The position numbers were made by a program, and so were the translations under genes. From the IMG/VR virus record IMGVR_UViG_2778261570_000020: a DNA stretch of 6,008 nucleotides. One strand, written 5' to 3'. Source of the stretch: a virus (lineage: Duplodnaviria; Heunggongvirae; Uroviricota; Caudoviricetes). Position 1 is the stretch's first letter. Each line of letters starts with the position of its first letter. Under the pieces are notes generated by a model, which had not been told where the DNA came from, searched no databases, and saw nothing but the letters and a program-made list of their open reading frames with translations. Shown piece after piece: positions 528 through 6,008 of this stretch.

Positions 528-710
528 ATGACGCGAAAACACTGGACACACAGAATGCCGCGAACGGCGGCGAAATGGGCACTGGTAGCGATACTGGTGC
601 CTTTTTTCCTGGTGGGATGCGTCAGTCTGGATAAGGCGCGCCAGCTTTTCGATACGGCTTCTCAGGTCTGCGAAATTGTCGACGGTGTTCGACAGTGTCT
701 GCAGAGCTGA
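528..710 (+). CDS. Putative small lipoprotein (about 60 aa precursor; alternative GTG start at 516)
   Basis: Translation MTRKHWTHRMPRTAAKWALVAILVPFFLVGCVSLDKARQLFDTASQVCEIVDGVRQCLQS: basic n-region, hydrophobic h-region and an L-V-G-C lipobox, leaving a roughly 30-residue mature peptide with three Cys. Third member of the coupled trio downstream of the endolysin-like gene. Confidence 0.4.
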   Translation: MTRKHWTHRMPRTAAKWALVAILVPFFLVGCVSLDKARQLFDTASQVCEIVDGVRQCLQS

Positions 711-722
711 ACGCCCGTAAGA

Positions 723-780
723 GCAGAATATTTCGCTGAAAAATGAAGGGTGCGCCAGCGTCCGGAAAGCATGAAATTCT
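723..780. repeat. Copy 1 of a ~58-bp imperfect direct repeat (perfect 20-bp core CGTCCGGAAAGCATGAAATT at 759-778)
   Basis: The 20-mer at 759-778 recurs exactly at 5876-5895. Flanking sequence is also similar: GCTGAAAAATGA (735-746) versus GCTAAAAAATGA (5852-5863), and GCCAG before the core with a 1-nt indel. Confidence 0.7.
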
Positions 781-883
781 GCTGTGTGTGTCAATTTGTC
801 TTATACATTCTGAATTTTGCCTAATCAGGATGAACTTTGAACAACAGCCCGGGCGGCAAGGGGCATTTTTATCCGGAGGGGAT

Positions 884-1108
884 ATGAAGAGATTACTGGT
901 AACCGTAAAGCCCTTTAACGGAACGATTCCATTCAGGGTTTTGCAGCGTGGACGTGTTCTGGTTAAGGATATCTTCAGTGGTAAATGCACGGAGTGTTAT
1001 TCCCGGACATATGAAGTGGATGCCACGGATGAAGAAATTTCTGTTGAATGTGATCTGAACGCAAATATGGTGGGGATTGTAACGGCCACGTTGTTGCCTG
1101 TTTCATGA
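884..1108 (+). CDS. Hypothetical protein (74 aa)
   Basis: ATG at 884 preceded by the Shine-Dalgarno-like GGAGGGG with correct spacing; the 12-mer GGAGGGGATATG is identical to the initiation region of the small terminase gene at 2026-2039. Translation MKRLLVTVKPFNGTIPFRVLQRGRVLVKDIFSGKCTECYSRTYEVDATDEEISVECDLNANMVGIVTATLLPVS. The ORF track extends this frame upstream to 743, but that N-terminal extension lacks an RBS and has odd composition. Confidence 0.5.
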   Translation: MKRLLVTVKPFNGTIPFRVLQRGRVLVKDIFSGKCTECYSRTYEVDATDEEISVECDLNANMVGIVTATLLPVS

Positions 1109-1148
1109 ATGACATAGAATGTCTCTGGGTACCCAAAAGGAGAACACT

Positions 1149-1364
1149 ATGTTTGTAGAAAATAACCTGAAGGCTGATCCTGATAATCAGGGATGGGTTC
1201 TTGGTTGGGCTGTAGTACGTGACAAACCCTGGCATCTGGTCGGCATTTATGCAACGGAGGATGGCGCAAAGTCTAAACGCTCTGAATTGAATGGGGAGTA
1301 TGAAGTTCATTATGGTTCCCATCGTTTAGGTAGTGATGATTTTATGTCTGTCGGACTTAGCTAA
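1149..1364 (+). CDS. Hypothetical protein (71 aa)
   Basis: ATG at 1149 preceded by AAGGAG with good spacing; translation MFVENNLKADPDNQGWVLGWAVVRDKPWHLVGIYATEDGAKSKRSELNGEYEVHYGSHRLGSDDFMSVGLS. Followed by a strong intrinsic terminator. Confidence 0.55.
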   Translation: MFVENNLKADPDNQGWVLGWAVVRDKPWHLVGIYATEDGAKSKRSELNGEYEVHYGSHRLGSDDFMSVGLS

Positions 1365-1386
1365 CTGGCTGTGATGCCTGTTTGTA

Positions 1387-1410
1387 GCCCCGCAAATGCG
1401 GGGCTTTTTT
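1387..1410 (+). terminator. Rho-independent terminator
   Basis: GCCCCGC (1387-1393), loop AAAT, GCGGGGC (1398-1404), then TTTTTT (1405-1410): a perfect 7-bp GC-rich stem plus a T-tract. Confidence 0.7.
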
Positions 1411-1420
1411 ATATCTGGAG

Positions 1421-1723
1421 ATGATGATGGAAAAAACAGAAAACAAACCGGTTGCAATTGGTGCTGTGGCTGTTCCGTTTAAGTTTGAACTGTCACAACT
1501 GGTGGAGATGCGCATCAGTGATGAATGGGGTGAGGTTAAAGCCCGCGCGCAGTATGCGTATGGCGAAAACCAGTACCTGATCCACTACAAAGCAGCTGAT
1601 GGTCGCGCCACGACGGAGTGGTTTGGTGAGTCAATGCTGGAAGCAACAGAAGATGATCGTCATCCTGGTTGTCCGGTATTTGCCTGCATGAAATTACCGG
1701 AAGGCGCAGTCGTTACTGAGTAA
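1421..1723 (+). CDS. Hypothetical protein (about 98-100 aa; start at one of the tandem ATGs 1421/1424/1427)
   Basis: GGAG at 1417-1420 followed by three consecutive ATG codons; translation MMMEKTENKPVAIGAVAVPFKFELSQLVEMRISDEWGEVKARAQYAYGENQYLIHYKAADGRATTEWFGESMLEATEDDRHPGCPVFACMKLPEGAVVTE, stop TAA 1721-1723. Acidic and soluble-looking; no recognisable family. Confidence 0.55.
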   Translation: MMMEKTENKPVAIGAVAVPFKFELSQLVEMRISDEWGEVKARAQYAYGENQYLIHYKAADGRATTEWFGESMLEATEDDRHPGCPVFACMKLPEGAVVTE

Positions 1724-2036
1724 CAGGCATTACAGCAGCCCTTCAGTGTGAGGGGCTGCGATAATGCAGGTGTTAGAGTGTGTGCAAATGATAATTGCTC
1801 CCATTTTCACGGGTCCTCCCGGTGGGGTACCCTTGCCACGGGGCGGGAGCGGCGCGGAAAAAGGCTAGTTTTTGCATTTTCATTCATCATCATCATCTTT
1901 TCAATGCATTGAATTTAAACGAATTTTATTTTTAGTATGTTAATTTTGCGTGTTTTTTGGTCAACATATAACGCACTTTATAACGCTTTTTGAAAAGGTG
2001 TTCGCAAGATGCATGTTTAAAACGTCAGGAGGGGAT
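1724..2036. other. Putative cos / packaging-initiation region upstream of the small terminase gene
   Basis: A 313-bp non-coding interval immediately 5' of a Nu1-like terS. It contains a G-rich tract CGGGGCGGGAGCGGCGCGG (1839-1857) that resembles but is not identical to the lambda cohesive end GGGCGGCGACCT, then an AT-rich stretch with CAT repeats (1881-1896) and a perfect 14-bp palindrome TTCAATGCATTGAA (1900-1913). The roughly 190-bp spacing from the G-rich tract to the terS ATG matches the lambda cosN-to-Nu1 layout. Confidence 0.35.
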
Positions 2037-2528
2037 ATGGATCGTGAGTTGAAAAATCTGATGCTGAACATTAACCAACTGGCGGCAATAGCAGGTATAT
2101 GTCGTCAGACTGCGGCGGCAAGACTGCAAAACATCCAGCCCGCCGGAGGACATGACAAGTTAAAGCTCTACCGGGTGGCAGATATTGTGTCGGCATTTCT
2201 GGCATTACCACCGCCGGTTGCAGAAGGCGAAATGGACGCGCATGAGCGCAAAGCCTGGTATCAGTCTGAACGTGAGCGTCTTAAGTTCGAACAGGAAACG
2301 GCACAACTCATTCCGGCCAGTGATGTCAGACGGGAGTTTGCCATCTGGGCAAAAGCGGTCGTGCAGGTGCTGGAGACATTACCGGATATTCTTGAACGTG
2401 ACTGCGGTCTGCAGCCTGCCGCTGTGAGCCGTGTTCAGTCCATTATTGATGATCTGCGCGATCAGATAGCCCTGCGGGTGACTGAAGCAGGTGCGGATGA
2501 TGAGGAGGAATTACAGCAGGAGGAGTAA
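2037..2528 (+). CDS. Terminase small subunit, Nu1-like (164 aa)
   Basis: ATG at 2037 with a strong AGGAGGGG RBS. The N-terminus MDRELKNLMLNINQLAAIAGICRQTAAARL...KLYRVADIVSAF parallels the lambda Nu1 helix-turn-helix region (KKQLADIFGASIRTIQNW...VLYDSAAVIKWY), with an acidic C-terminus. Stop TAA 2526-2528 overlaps the ATG of the large-subunit gene (TAATG). The longer track ORF from 1950 would run through the cos-like region and is not preferred. Confidence 0.75.
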   Translation: MDRELKNLMLNINQLAAIAGICRQTAAARLQNIQPAGGHDKLKLYRVADIVSAFLALPPPVAEGEMDAHERKAWYQSERERLKFEQETAQLIPASDVRREFAIWAKAVVQVLETLPDILERDCGLQPAAVSRVQSIIDDLRDQIALRVTEAGADDEEELQQEE

Positions 2529-3523
2529 TGCTGAATCAGGAAACCGCAAAGGCAGCACGAACCGATTCAGGTTATATCCTTCGCGCACCGAGACGAATGC
2601 GGGTTGCTGATGCCGTTGCTCAGTATATGCGGGTGCCTATGGGGGCAGGGAACTCAGTCCCGTGGGATCCGCTGGTGGCACCGTATGTTATTGAGCCTAT
2701 GAACTGCCTGGCCTCGCGTGAATACGACGCAGTGATATTTGTTGGCCCGGCACGAACCGGCAAGACTATCGGCCTGATTGACGGCTGGGTGATTTACAAC
2801 GTGATTTGCGATCCTGCTGATATGCTGATCATTCAGATGACGGAGGAAAAAGCCCGCGAACACTCCAAAAAACGACTCGCCAGAACGTTTCGCGTCAGCC
2901 CGGAAGTGGTCAGTCGCCTGAGTCCGAACAAAAATGACAACAACGTTTATGACAGAACATTCCTTGCCGGCAATTACCTGAAAATCGGCTGGCCGTCAGT
3001 CAATATCATGTCCTCATCAGATTATAAATGTGTGGCGCTGACGGATTATGACCGTTTTCCGGAAGATATTGATGGTGAGGGGGATGCCTTCTCTCTTGCT
3101 TCAAAACGAACCACCACATTTATGTCCAGCGGTATGACGCTGGTGGAAAGTTCACCCGGCAGGGATGTGAAAGATGTGAAATGGCGACGGACTTCACCGC
3201 ATGAGGCTCCGCCAACCACGGGGATCCTGTCACTCTATAACCGTGGCGATCGTCGTCGCTGGTACTGGCCCTGCCCACACTGTGGTGAGTATTTTCAGCC
3301 CTGTGGCGATGTGGTTGCTGGTTTTCGTGATATTGCCGATCCCGTGCTGGCAAGTGAGGCAGCTTATATTCAGTGCCCTTCCTGTTCCGGGCGAATTATG
3401 CCTGACCAGAAACGCGAGCTGAACGGACGTGGGGTCTGGTTGCGGGATGGTGAATCCATCAATGCAGACGGCAGTCGTTATGGTGAGCCCCGGCGCTCAC
3501 GTATTGCGTCATTCTGGATGTAG
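2528..3523 (+). CDS. Terminase large subunit, GpA-like, N-terminal half only (331 aa; C-terminally truncated, likely remnant/pseudogene)
   Basis: Walker A-type motif VGPARTGKT and cysteine motifs WPCPHCGEYFQPCGD and CPSCSG that parallel lambda gpA (ACPHCGEEQYLKFGD, then GIWTRDG versus GVWLRDG here). Lambda gpA is about 640 aa; this frame stops at ...RIASFWM where gpA continues (...VTFHIWTAYSPF...), and no continuation is visible in any frame downstream. Confidence 0.8.
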   Translation: MLNQETAKAARTDSGYILRAPRRMRVADAVAQYMRVPMGAGNSVPWDPLVAPYVIEPMNCLASREYDAVIFVGPARTGKTIGLIDGWVIYNVICDPADMLIIQMTEEKAREHSKKRLARTFRVSPEVVSRLSPNKNDNNVYDRTFLAGNYLKIGWPSVNIMSSSDYKCVALTDYDRFPEDIDGEGDAFSLASKRTTTFMSSGMTLVESSPGRDVKDVKWRRTSPHEAPPTTGILSLYNRGDRRRWYWPCPHCGEYFQPCGDVVAGFRDIADPVLASEAAYIQCPSCSGRIMPDQKRELNGRGVWLRDGESINADGSRYGEPRRSRIASFWM

Positions 3524-3609
3524 GGTACATTTCTTACCTGTTTTTATGTTCTGGTGTCGTTTTGTAGTCTTTTCAATGAGTTGTGATTTTTTGTGTTTCC
3601 TCTCTTTAC

Positions 3610-3639
3610 TTGATAATGAGTTAGTTTATCGCTTGTTAT
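3610..3639 (+). promoter_or_regulatory. Possible sigma70-like promoter and direct repeats upstream of the integrase gene
   Basis: TTGATA (3610-3615), 18 bp, TGTTAT (3634-3639) in an AT-rich spacer; TTATCG is directly repeated at 3626-3631 and 3636-3641. Purely motif-based. Confidence 0.2.
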
Positions 3640-3684
3640 CGACTTGAAAGGACTACATGACGGACTAAAAAATGAGGGCGATAG

Positions 3685-4923
3685 ATGCCGGTAAAGCCAT
3701 TAACCGTGACTGAAGTTAAGGGGATGAAACCACGTGAAAAGGACTATGCCGTTTATGATGGGTTCGGTTTATTGCTGAATGTGAGTAAAGCTGGTGGGAA
3801 AGTGTGGCGTTTCCGTTATAGCCATCCGATAACGAAGAAACGGCAGACATACACGATAGGGCGTTTTCCTGAATTCTCACTCGCGGAAGCACGGGAAATA
3901 CGTGATGAACTTCGGCGAATGATTGCACGTGGAGTTGATCCAGTGACAGAGAAGAAAAATCGTAAAATTGAGATGTCACTAAAAAATCTACAAACATTTG
4001 AAGCTGTTGCTAATGCATGGATCGCTTTTAAAAAGGGATCGGAATTGCGGAAACCTACGCTGTATAATATCGAATATGAAGTATACAAATATCTTGTTCC
4101 TTTCTTTGGTAAGTACAGCATAGAGAAAATTACAGCGCCAGTAGCTATTAATGCTCTGGATGCCGTATCCGATAAGAATGCGTTGCAAAAAAAATTAATA
4201 TCAAGATTAAATGAAATTATGAATTACGCTGTAAATTGTGGAGCATTGAAAACGAATCCATTACTTAAGATAAAAACTGCATTCACAGGAAAGAAAAATA
4301 AATCATTAGCTGCACTACCTGTTGAAAGATTGCCTGAATTTCTGAGTTGGTGGGATAGTGTGCCTCATAAGTATCAAATAGCTCACAATGCACTTTTATT
4401 CCAGATATTGACAATGGTCAGGCCAGGTGAGGCGATTAAAGCAGAGTGGTCCGAGATTGATTTTGATTCTGGCTTGTGGATTATCCCTGCGCATAAAATG
4501 AAATGCCATCGTGAACATGTTGTGCCTCTCTCATCACAGGCTATTAGAATCCTAAGAACAATGCAGAAAATAAAAAGAGGGCGTTATATATTTTTTTCCT
4601 CCAGAACAAAAGATGCTCCTATGGGAAAGAATACTATCAATACCCCAATTGCTGCCAGCAAGTTCAAAGGGATTGTAACGTTACACGGTTTTCGTTCGAT
4701 GTGGAGTACGCTTTTAAATGAGGAGGGTTTTAACCCTGATGTTATTGAGGCTGCATTAGCACATAAAAGTGGTGATAAAATAAGAGATATTTATAATAGA
4801 ACTACTTATTTAGAACAACGCAAAATTATGATGCAATGGGTAGGAGATTTTTTTGATGAGGCGAGAAAAGGGGTAATTAATAGATCCGGTGGTAAGAAAG
4901 GTTTGAGAATAGTAAATGGTTGA
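3685..4923 (+). CDS. int: Tyrosine site-specific integrase, P4-type (412 aa)
   Basis: N-terminal arm-binding-type domain (MPVKPLTVTEVKGMKPREKDYAVYDGFGLLLNVSKAGGKVWRFRYSHP..., characteristic of P4-like integrases). Catalytic motifs are present: RPGE box (MVRPGEAIKAEW), HGFRSMWST (H-x-x-R) and the C-terminal tyrosine region AHKSGDKIRDIYNRTTY. RBS GAGGG upstream of ATG 3685. Gene is AT-rich relative to the terminase block. Confidence 0.9.
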   Translation: MPVKPLTVTEVKGMKPREKDYAVYDGFGLLLNVSKAGGKVWRFRYSHPITKKRQTYTIGRFPEFSLAEAREIRDELRRMIARGVDPVTEKKNRKIEMSLKNLQTFEAVANAWIAFKKGSELRKPTLYNIEYEVYKYLVPFFGKYSIEKITAPVAINALDAVSDKNALQKKLISRLNEIMNYAVNCGALKTNPLLKIKTAFTGKKNKSLAALPVERLPEFLSWWDSVPHKYQIAHNALLFQILTMVRPGEAIKAEWSEIDFDSGLWIIPAHKMKCHREHVVPLSSQAIRILRTMQKIKRGRYIFFSSRTKDAPMGKNTINTPIAASKFKGIVTLHGFRSMWSTLLNEEGFNPDVIEAALAHKSGDKIRDIYNRTTYLEQRKIMMQWVGDFFDEARKGVINRSGGKKGLRIVNG

Positions 4924-4935
4924 GGAGTTCAGCAA

Positions 4936-5139
4936 ATGAATACCAATGAAGATATTTTATTTACTAAAGACGTAATGAAAATTTTGCGCTATGGGGCAAT
5001 GAGCGCATTCATCAATTTCTGGAAAGATGAAAATAATGGTTTTCCTCAACCGTTCAGAATTGGGCGGCGGCATACCTGGCACCGTAGAGATGTAGAGGCA
5101 TGGTTAGATAAACAACGAGAACAGGCCAATCCCCACTAA
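4936..5139 (+). CDS. alpA: AlpA-family (excisionase-like) DNA-binding regulator (67 aa)
   Basis: Small protein immediately 3' of the integrase (13-bp gap, RBS GAGGAG). The pattern ...KDVMKILRYGAMSAFINFWKDENNGFPQPFRIGRRHTWHRRDVEAWLDKQ matches the AlpA / prophage CP4-57 regulatory protein architecture (HTH, then a conserved FP-x-P-hydrophobic-x-G motif, then W-x3-[DE]-x2-[EA]-W). Confidence 0.7.
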   Translation: MNTNEDILFTKDVMKILRYGAMSAFINFWKDENNGFPQPFRIGRRHTWHRRDVEAWLDKQREQANPH

Positions 5140-5153
5140 TAATATCTTTCATA

Positions 5154-5178
5154 CCCCGCACGCAATGCGGGGTTTTTT
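5154..5178 (+). terminator. Rho-independent terminator
   Basis: CCCCGCA (5154-5160), loop CGCAA, TGCGGGG (5166-5172), then TTTTTT (5173-5178). Confidence 0.75.
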
Positions 5179-5197
5179 GTATGTGAGGTAAAAAACG

Positions 5198-5779
5198 ATG
5201 AATAAAAATATTGCCGTGACGGGCAAGGGGTACGCTCGTTCAGTAAAAAAATTCTGCGATATTCGTGATCTTGTCGTTCTGCGCTTTGATGGCGTGGATG
5301 TTCGTGTGGTGTATCTGAACGGCGATCCGTGGTTTGTTGCAAAGGATGTTTGTGAAGCTCTGGAAATAAGCAACTCACGCGATGCTCTAAAAGCTCTGGA
5401 TGTGGATGAGAAGAATACCGTCGCTTTAAGCTACGGTATTCGCGGAAATCCAAATCATAGCGTCGTTTCTGAATCTGGTTTTTACAAGCTGATCGCCAGA
5501 AGTCGCAAAGCTGTTACTCCTGGCACGTTCGCCCATCGTTTCAGTAATTGGGTATTCAGAAATGTGATACCGGGTATCAGAAAAACGGGGGCTTATGGTA
5601 TCCCGTGGGGCGCATTGCAGGATTTTTCCCGCCGCAAAGAGCAATACCGGATAAGTGCCAGCGAGAAGGGGAGGGCGCTACAGGCATGTAAGCGCAAAAA
5701 GCGTGAACTGGAGGAAGAAGAAAAAAGGCTGATACGTGAATATCAGCCTGAGTTTTACTTTGGTGAGCGTATTCAGTAA
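5198..5779 (+). CDS. Bro-N domain protein (phage antirepressor-like; 193 aa)
   Basis: RBS TGAGGT 8 nt upstream of ATG 5198. Conserved Bro-N signature blocks: VVLRFDGVDVRVVYLNGDPWFVAKDVCEAL...SRDALKALDVDEK, then SESGFYKLIARSRKA...FAHRFSNWVFRNVIPGIRKTGAYG. C-terminal 50 residues are highly charged (KRKKRELEEEEKRLIRE). Confidence 0.8.
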   Translation: MNKNIAVTGKGYARSVKKFCDIRDLVVLRFDGVDVRVVYLNGDPWFVAKDVCEALEISNSRDALKALDVDEKNTVALSYGIRGNPNHSVVSESGFYKLIARSRKAVTPGTFAHRFSNWVFRNVIPGIRKTGAYGIPWGALQDFSRRKEQYRISASEKGRALQACKRKKRELEEEEKRLIREYQPEFYFGERIQ

Positions 5780-5824
5780 CCGCGTACGGTGCTGATTATA
5801 CGGTACATCGTGTTAACCGGGAAG

Positions 5825-5939
5825 TTACCCACCAGCAAGGCAAAATCTTCTGCTAAAAAATGACATATGGCCAGTCGTCCGGAAAGCATGAAATTTTACA
5901 AAAATGGAAAATGAAGATTTTTATTGTGCTGGTGGGTAA
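5825..5939. repeat. Perfect 13-bp inverted repeat (TTACCCACCAGCA at 5825-5837 / TGCTGGTGGGTAA at 5927-5939) enclosing an 89-bp spacer
   Basis: Exact reverse-complement arms read directly from the sequence; the spacer contains the second copy of the direct repeat. Confidence 0.7.
5840..5897. repeat. Copy 2 of the ~58-bp imperfect direct repeat (perfect 20-bp core at 5876-5895)
   Basis: See copy 1 at 723-780; the core CGTCCGGAAAGCATGAAATT is identical in both. Confidence 0.7.
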
Positions 5940-5970
5940 AAACAAAAAGCGCCCCGTTGCCGGAGCGCCC
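5938..5970 (-). terminator. Possible intrinsic terminator for a minus-strand transcript entering from beyond the right edge
   Basis: On the minus strand GGGCGCUCCGG-CAAC-GGGGCGC forms an imperfect GC-rich hairpin (about 8 bp including one G-U) followed by UUUUUGUUUUU (plus-strand AAAAACAAAAA at 5938-5948). Confidence 0.35.
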
Positions 5971-6008
5971 TTGCGAACAATTAACCTACTGCGCAAAAAA
6001 TGAATCTG

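Follow-up and report, generated by a model that had tools for sequence, protein, structure and literature searches.

The short "linker" or boundary sequences between lambdoid modules reportedly belong to the modular theory of Susskind and Botstein, and are said to be discussed by Juhala et al. in 2000 and by Clark et al. in 2001. The PeSLs (promoter-early stem-loops) of T4-type phages, reportedly described by Arbiol et al. in 2010, are small, repeated, dyad-symmetric intergenic cassettes which flank accessory genes and for which modular shuffling was proposed. Here we describe a conserved, non-coding intergenic element of about 60 bp, fixed in orientation, that circulates among the lambdoid prophages of E. 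coli and Shigella and among satellites of the phage-inducible chromosomal island (PICI) type. Two copies lie in a stretch of 6,008 nucleotides from the virus record IMGVR_UViG_2778261570_000020; this whole stretch is called the window below.

The window is a lambdoid prophage in which the large-terminase gene (terL) is cut at 3520 by a satellite, a helper-embedded PICI (HE-PICI). The HE-PICI configuration was published by Tommasini, Mageeney and Williams in 2023 (PMC10111431), so a PICI embedded in the terminase gene of its helper is not new. In that paper, the zones of an HE-PICI follow the order integrase and AlpA, Bro zone, replication (primase) and late zone; DNA shared by helper and satellite (cos and captured late genes) is noted, and the Bro zone is called dynamic. 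The element of about 60 bp itself seems to be undescribed. It has no Rfam family, and literature searches with its sequence strings and with locus tags of enterohaemorrhagic E. coli (EHEC), as well as the papers on anti-small RNAs (anti-sRNAs) and Pas sRNAs, yielded no relevant match.

A repeat search gave 723–778 versus 5840–5895 as the largest direct repeat of the window (56 nt, 75% identity). It contains the exact 20-mer CGTCCGGAAAGCATGAAATT, found at 759–778 and 5876–5895 and in both cases on the plus strand. With up to three mismatches allowed and both strands searched, these were the only two matches in the window, against 0.01 expected from 200 shuffles; the two repeats are far beyond chance. 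A profile search widened the units to 722–783 and 5839–5899. The repeat named in the original prediction for this DNA was therefore borne out, while its length of 58 bp was not, the unit being about 60 nt. The terminal 7-nt arms, GCAGAAT and ATTCTGC, are fully complementary in copy 1 and complementary at six of seven positions in copy 2. The two copies are divided as follows.

723 to 782, plus strand: element copy 1, type A; left block 723–746 (GCAGAATATTTCGCTGAAAAATGA), free spacer 747–758, right block 759–782 (CGTCCGGAAAGCATGAAATTCTGC).
5840 to 5899, plus strand: element copy 2, type B; left block 5840–5863 (GCAAAATCTTCTGCTAAAAAATGA), spacer 5864–5875, right block 5876–5899 (CGTCCGGAAAGCATGAAATTTTAC).

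The places first given for the copies also agree with our results: the lysis genes and cos/terS flank copy 1, and 60 nt separate copy 2 from the stop codon of the upstream Bro-N gene (5777–5779). The repeat did not turn out to be a fragment of a known gene or the end of an insertion sequence (IS).

Outside the window, the exact 20-mer matched at least 120 IMG/VR stretches, and a search with the left 24-mer gave a further IMG/VR set which partly overlaps the first and is likewise a lower bound. The element is present in well over 150 IMG/VR prophage contigs. When the instances were aligned on the core, they fell into four sequence types, labelled A to D in this analysis, which occupy four unrelated contexts. 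Type A lies 3′ of a spanin-like gene in phiP27-type lysis cassettes; phiP27 itself carries it, unannotated, at 20841–20940. Type B lies 3′ of a homologous Bro-N gene in satellites, at a fixed distance in 27 of 29 instances (28 loci and this window), the other two being cut by the contig end. The integrase of these satellites is either that of the window (92–100% identity) or an unrelated one (23–30%); the terL types in which these satellites sit vary. In type C, found in a phage whose head module is different, the element stands between an HNH/Ref-like gene, itself adjacent to NinB, and a downstream helix-turn-helix (HTH) gene. In Stx2 phages, type D has its start at the stop codon of the endolysin gene, upstream of ant; it is found in P13374 (the O104:H4 phage) and in Sakai Sp5, between ECs_1213 and ECs_1214. 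The flanks of types A to D show no sequence relation to one another, and between the satellite Bro-N and the ant gene beside type D the homology is only faint, at the level of the Bro-N domain.

Each phage or satellite has one copy of the element, always in the orientation of the upstream gene, and nhmmer with --max detected no diverged extra copies elsewhere in the phage genomes. The copy 1 region matches 228 of 5,426 complete E. coli genomes, and full-length matches to the copy 2 region were obtained in 52. When the GTDB species representatives were scanned, both with degeneracy allowed and for exact matches, no carrier appeared except one planctomycete hit, which we take as chance because about one match was expected. 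As no GTDB representative carries the element, we assign it to the E. coli/Shigella prophage pool.

The left-block consensus of types A and D is GCAGAATATTTTGCTGAAAAATGA. The right-block consensus is CGTCCGGAAAGCATGAAATTCTG in types A, B and C and GGATAACACGAAATCCTG in type D. The spacer between the blocks measures 12–17 nt and has 40 distinct sequences among 135 instances; the distance from the ATG of the left block to the CGG of the right block is 17 nt in 130 of these and rarely 18, 16 or 14 nt. The outer 14 nt of the two blocks make an imperfect inverted repeat. Constraint was measured in an unbiased sample of 74 loci anchored on the spanin protein and not on the element. Nucleotide diversity in this sample was 0.023 for the left 24-mer, 0.049 for AAGCATGAAATTCTGT and 0.13 for GTCCGGA, and reached 0.18 in the spacer; the upstream coding DNA gave 0.056 and the DNA directly past the element 0.42. 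Constraint on the blocks equals or exceeds that on coding DNA, the spacer drifts, and on its right the element ends in a mosaic boundary. The idea that diversifying selection makes the spacer "hypervariable" was considered and dropped, since a diversity of 0.18 resembles that of neutral sites in the unbiased sample.

These values bear on the view that the element is a neutral relic, a functionless intergenic scrap carried along by repeated recombination. Its absence from about a quarter of related phages, its confinement to the E. coli/Shigella prophage pool among the scanned GTDB representatives, and the lack of an assignable function would all agree with such an origin. A relic should decay uniformly, however, and here blocks more conserved than the adjacent coding DNA accompany a drifting spacer and remain identical across contexts whose flanks are wholly unrelated. 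We consider a relic quite unlikely.

Both copies contain an ATG (743 and 5860), and the open reading frames (ORFs) beginning there read MKGAPASGKHEIL... and MTYGQSSGKHEIL..., as first described. A short ORF or leader peptide starting from the conserved AAAAATG could account for the presence of the ATG in most copies and for the motif (A/S)-S-G-K-H-E-I-L common to types A, B and C; in the window, moreover, the frame meets no stop before it enters the gene at 884. The identical 20-mer, however, simply gives the shared peptide SGKHEIL when translated. Codons 2–6 of the proposed ORF are the freely varying spacer, and spacer variants of +1, −1 and −3 nt (the 18-, 16- and 14-nt distances), not all of them multiples of three, displace or change the frame. 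Two variants have ATA or AAG in place of the ATG. In types with another right half the ORF closes after 8–10 codons (after 8 in type D and after 10 in L137), and the ATG is preceded by no Shine-Dalgarno sequence. Past the right block the sequence is unrelated between variants, and in relatives the annotated start of the next gene corresponds to 884, where the true gene after copy 1 starts. The duplicated gene 5′ end or leader that had been suggested is not supported by these observations, and a mini-OR­F is very improbable. Coding on the minus strand was also rejected, as a TGA interrupts the frame of the ORF MLSGR... in the common variants with GTCAGCG.

Other familiar identities were examined for the element. 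Searches with the Rfam 15 covariance models at E≤1, covering among others AgvB, AsxR, C4, isrK, Esr41 and STnc100, gave no match on either window copy or on types A, B and D in contigs L126, L127 and L005. No intrinsic terminator was found at 723–783 or at 5825–5939 on either strand. No sigma-70 promoter-like site lies over either copy; by inspection of both strands the best candidates agree at 3–4 of 6 positions per hexamer and have wrong spacings. A miniature inverted-repeat transposable element or IS end was rejected because types A to D have no flanking duplication, each phage or satellite has a single copy, and no clean empty site was seen among 19 relatives lacking the element. An att-type repeat was rejected as well: the insertion junction is at 3514–3520 and not at the repeat, and copy 1 is present in satellite-free phages.

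Because the element always follows a stop codon on the sense strand, we infer that it may act in cis on the transcript of the upstream gene. It could do so as a hairpin in the 3′ untranslated region (3′-UTR) or between cistrons, as a recognition site for a protein or RNase, or as a determinant of late-mRNA processing or stability, and its conserved halves would at the same time offer short homology for the exchange of downstream accessory modules. Such a sense-strand 3′-UTR or boundary element, doubling as a crossover point, is the explanation that we prefer, at about even chances. That the mechanism operates at the RNA level is a putative component, which we put forward tentatively and with rather low confidence. 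The conserved regulatory site offered in the original prediction is no more than a possibility.

Comparison among the types provides some evidence for a putative RNA structure. Under a three-helix hairpin model, 89% of sequence-by-pair cells pair, versus 32–46% when the 3′ partners are slid. There is one exchange of G:C for A:U in type B, and several A-U/G-U and C-G/U-G alternations pair only in the plus (sense) RNA. In type D an intrinsic terminator lies about 45 nt downstream of the element, in two unrelated sequence versions at the same position (for example L126 2560–2660 and L307 7600–7680). This fits a 3′-UTR setting and suggests a conserved 3′-end architecture after the endolysin gene, upstream of ant, in Stx2 phages.

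Several results weigh against the explanation that we prefer. The hairpin model was derived from the tested sequences, which inflates the slid-partner control. RNAalifold retained only a 3-bp stem at −1.05 kcal/mol, and copy 1 folds no better than its shuffles (z −0.14 on the plus and −0.53 on the minus strand). The spacer taken as a conserved hairpin was rejected, its mean energy of −4.70 kcal/mol being no more stable than the −4.62 kcal/mol of shuffled spacers. In Sakai Sp5 the arms GAAGAAT...ATCCTGC break two of the seven outer pairs. The long exact conservation suggests that the sequence itself, and not just its shape, is recognised. Ascertainment accounts for part of the invariance that the 20-mer showed in the first sample, since the 20-mer was the search key there. 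No partner of the element, protein or RNA, was found, and a search for a spacer-complementary partner in the same contig gave only inconsistent matches of at most 11 nt. Finally, among the 74 phages with the same spanin gene the element is complete in 55 and absent or fragmentary in 19, and is therefore dispensable.

A strong structure surrounds copy 2.

5825 to 5939, no strand assigned: hairpin or palindrome around copy 2, 115 nt, with 13-bp perfect outer arms (5825–5837 and 5927–5939) and an inner 9-bp stem.

Its stability corresponds to z −4.4 on the plus and −5.2 on the minus strand. Each outer arm holds a Chi octamer, the two facing inward: CCACCAGC at 5829–5836 on the minus strand and GCTGGTGG at 5928–5935 on the plus strand. 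The Chi-bearing hairpin is kept in 24 of 25 type B loci and is absent near types A and C.

The element also marks the edge of sequence similarity. Many E. coli genomes match the copy 1 region only as far as window positions 781–796, and past the same right arm at least six unrelated sequences occur. The halves are reassorted among the types, A being L1+R1, D L1+R2, B L2+R1 and C L3+R1; the spacer GTTGGCCAAC is common to types C and D and occurs in near-identical form in an A scaffold. In contig L136 the left half only is present, joined to unrelated DNA, and three phages retain just the arms GCAGAATATTTT...GAAATTCT, which flank the ribosome-binding site of an HNH gene. What is expected of a linker or shuffling cassette, namely boundaries of unrelated modules, breakpoints and reassorted halves, was thus found. 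A module boundary or recombination hotspot had been among the first proposals: it was supported in part, by the recurrence in four unrelated contexts, the collapse of similarity past the right arm and the reassorted halves, and any causal promotion of exchange would be putative.

The same findings could be explained by a "linker" acting purely at the DNA level, in which lambdoid phages and satellites would swap neighbouring modules by using the halves as homology. RecA or recombinases of the phages would carry out the exchange, in satellites with help from the two inward-facing Chi sites, and no RNA function would be required. Homology that breaks exactly at the right arm, where diversity rises from 0.05 to 0.42, speaks for it, as do the left-half-only junction, the arms-only variants and the reassorted halves just described. 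The inverted Chi octamers flank type B in nearly all loci, and a NinB/Orf recombination gene stands beside type C. On the other hand, the identical blocks are just 20–24 bp, which does not exceed the shortest homology that RecA can exchange efficiently. The Chi sites are confined to type B in the comparison with types A and C, strict orientation relative to the upstream gene would be needless, and a functionless linker would decay evenly, yet the spacer is free and the blocks are constrained. Hybrids of A and B, which would delete the interval cos-terS-int, were found in none of 175 instances (147 with the A left half and 28 with the B left half). The element does sit in two "dynamic" zones, the post-lysis accessory region and the Bro zone of the PICI, the latter so called in the HE-PICI paper (PMC10111431). 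A linker without RNA function is possible, if on balance somewhat doubtful.

A regulator, a nucleoid protein or another host or phage protein that bound the DNA at a bipartite site would likewise explain two conserved blocks separated by an unconstrained spacer of near-constant length, with ends in imperfect inverted repeat; the spacers moreover often contain perfect palindromes of 8–12 bp with differing sequences. Rare indels alone would give a constant spacer length, however, and no candidate protein is common to the four contexts. With no promoter-like site over either copy, and with the fixed orientation and the place just past stop codons left unexplained, a binding site of this kind is unlikely.

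One further property of the type A spacer was observed. Its 12-mer (e.g. GGATGCGTCAGC) repeats the stretch of lipobox codons (G-C-V-S) that lies 106 nt upstream in the spanin-like gene, with a perfect match in 21 of 78 loci and in three haplotypes; in the window, the spacer region 747–760 matches the lipobox region 611–640 at 9 of 12 positions. Within genomes the matching of spacer and lipobox is not significantly better than under random pairing of haplotypes (p 0.17–0.28), and the type D spacer scored against its own Rz1 lipobox falls inside the null. The identity could be due to gene conversion, an old partial duplication or chance.

The ownership of the two copies follows from the genes around them and from the insertion junction. 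The features of the helper prophage are these.

528 to 710, plus strand: lipoprotein-like ORF of 60 aa (lipobox LVGC; phrog_7528, of unknown function) that closes the helper lysis cassette.
2528 to 3523, plus strand: N-terminal part of the helper terL, 331 codons with the gpA ATPase domain, truncated by the insertion.
3514 to 3520, plus strand: left junction of the satellite in terL, with attL core CTGGATG, separating helper DNA (copy 1) from satellite DNA (copy 2).

Small membrane ORFs and the lipoprotein-like ORF form the lysis-cassette end that opens the window. In relatives, the homologue of the 528–710 ORF comes after two holins and an endolysin; its lipobox and position suggest that the product is an o-spanin. 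Copy 1 begins 13 nt past the stop codon of this gene and is followed, in order, by three small ORFs, a cos-like region, a DUF1441 small-terminase-like gene and the gpA-type large terminase. The window position 3520 corresponds to position 9231 of the intact terL of the same phage in contig L002 (E. coli PSS-15). In contig L001 (E. coli JNEC-KY179), an element of about 9.5 kb lies between two terL halves, attR resumes at L002 position 9226, and the 6–7 bp core (CTGGATG) is repeated at both satellite junctions. The L001 element contains int, HTH, Bro-N, YlcI/YnfO, Icd-like, DUF4222 and primase genes and capsid/ClpP fragments. The window shares the first three of the genes that follow the published HE-PICI zone order (int, HTH, Bro-N), and the Icd-like, DUF4222, primase and capsid/ClpP parts are seen in L001 past the window end. 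The insertion itself is as described for HE-PICIs: terL is interrupted here, the intact allele is that of L002, and the L001 satellite stands between terL halves with CTGGATG cores. The satellite features of the window are the following.

3685 to 5139, plus strand: satellite integration zone, with a tyrosine integrase (3685–4923) and an AlpA-like HTH gene (4936–5139), co-oriented with the helper late genes.
5198 to 5779, plus strand: Bro-N domain gene of the satellite "Bro zone" (PF02498, 1.6e-18), with copy 2 in its 3′ flank.
5945 to 5972, minus strand: strong intrinsic terminator, ending the satellite leftward operon (a hypothetical gene and YlcI/YnfO) just before the copy-2 hairpin.

Copy 1 is thus helper-prophage DNA and copy 2 is satellite DNA, and of the identity and ownership of the two copies we are highly confident. 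The statement that the pair brackets the packaging genes and the integrase module was misleading: these genes belong to two nested elements, the helper prophage up to 3520 and the HE-PICI after it, and the pair therefore bounds no unit. That the repeats are direct and 5.1 kb apart results solely from the integration of the satellite, always in one orientation, at a place downstream of the lysis genes. The two copies were inherited independently; there was no duplication at this locus and no mobile unit is delimited.

The alternative, in which the two repeats would mark the limits of a single mobile or duplicated unit carrying cos, terS, the terL fragment, int, HTH and Bro, would draw on the integrase between the direct repeats and on the recurrence of their spacing: in four other contigs an A and a B copy (a D and a B copy in L114) stand on the same strand 5.1–5.7 kb apart. 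It is already contradicted by the junction at 3514–3520 with its own CTGGATG core, and by the many satellite-free phages which have copy 1. Copy 2 occurs in satellites with an unrelated integrase in another terL type, as in L005, where the satellite module is paired with such an integrase in a P27-type terL, and the L114 helper has type D, not A. This alternative can practically be set aside.

Helper and satellite share a second sequence, unrelated to the repeat.

1801 to 1896, plus strand: stretch of the helper cos region, with two 76–78% identical copies in the L001 satellite (23627–23722 and 25309–25405), beside capsid/ClpP gene fragments.

The satellite copies of this stretch would fit cos mimicry together with late-gene capture.

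Some other features of the neighbourhood were recorded. A strong intrinsic terminator at 5153–5173 (plus strand) lies between the AlpA-like gene and Bro-N, which suggests that Bro-N is a separate, moron-like unit. A YlcI/YnfO family gene is annotated in the satellites of relatives on the opposite strand downstream of copy 2 (L001 19641–19946, minus strand), and in L136 the truncated element is directly followed by a similar gene starting MMETTENK. The helper has a small ORF at 1421–1723 (phrog_1935) upstream of cos. A weak GcvB-like Rfam match was obtained at 1277–1412 on the plus strand (25.7 bits, E 0.013, under the gathering score of 42) and recurs in a related phage (L005, 7267–7402). It spans the 3′ end of a small ORF at 1149–1364, which contains GUAGUGAUGAUUUUAUGU, and a terminator at 1386–1405; it could be a GU-rich RNA derived from a 3′-UTR, or chance.

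Block-by-block conservation of the element spans phiP27-type phages, Stx2 phages (Sakai Sp5 and the O104:H4 phage), the NinB/HNH phage type and HE-PICIs with unrelated integrases, and in all of these the element sits where the neighbouring content changes. If the element functions as an RNA signal, a new cis element would be recognised in the late transcripts of lambdoid phages, situated beside the lysis genes of Shiga-toxin phages. If it is a crossover point, it would give the old "linker" idea a defined, mutable sequence and one route of gene trading between satellites and helpers. More speculatively, and to our mind doubtfully, it may be a dedicated exchange point for the accessory cassettes of phages and satellites (Bro-network genes and small post-lysis ORFs), potentiated by Chi in the satellites, or the satellite copy may mimic a signal of the helper late transcript, in which case the factor handling the helper lysis mRNA would also handle the satellite int-alpA-bro transcript. 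Either of these would make the element a concrete linker common to a parasite and its hyperparasite. Should it be neither an RNA signal nor a crossover point, the element would still be a useful marker of module boundaries for the annotation of E. coli prophages.

The attC sites of integrons are units of about 60 bp located 3′ of the cassette gene; their ends are conserved and form an imperfect inverted repeat, and the centre varies. The element resembles them in form only, as RYYYAAC/GTTRRRY core sites, an integron integrase and cassette arrays are all absent here. With lambdoid linkers it has in common a short conserved boundary sequence, unrelated neighbourhoods and breakpoints at the edge. 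The classic linkers were postulated and undefined, whereas the element has a bipartite anatomy, a fixed orientation and a free spacer, and reaches satellites. PeSLs include a promoter and occur many times per genome, in contrast to the element, which has no promoter-like site and one copy per phage or satellite.

Among RNAs, the anti-sRNAs AsxR and AgvB of EHEC prophages (Tree et al. 2014, PMC4104026) are about 55–60 nt long, with a conserved part and a variable part of 14–18 nt, and are included in Rfam as RF02702 and RF02703 (listed by Zhu, Shabalina and Storz 2026, bioRxiv 10.64898/2026.05.13.724894). Like the element, they have conserved positions in lambdoid prophages and combine a conserved with a variable part (PMC4104026); unlike it, they lie 3′ of pR′ and upstream of the lysis genes and have their own promoters and terminators. 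The P4 immunity RNA (CI, seqA, seqB, seqC) also has short repeats in or near a satellite Bro-network gene and acts at the RNA level, according to the HE-PICI paper (PMC10111431). The P4 repeats are mutually complementary and are detected by the Rfam models C4 and isrK, whereas the copies of the element have the same sense, belong to two elements and gave no C4 or isrK hit at E≤1.

The closest system remains the HE-PICI, whose configuration is the same here, with integrase, AlpA-like HTH and Bro-N genes co-oriented in an interrupted lambdoid late gene, terL (PMC10111431). In the sections consulted and in term searches of the paper no description of the 60-bp element was found, and the "doubled DNA motif" reported there flanks attP and not the Bro gene. 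The element, in turn, is not specific to satellites: most of its copies are in ordinary prophages.

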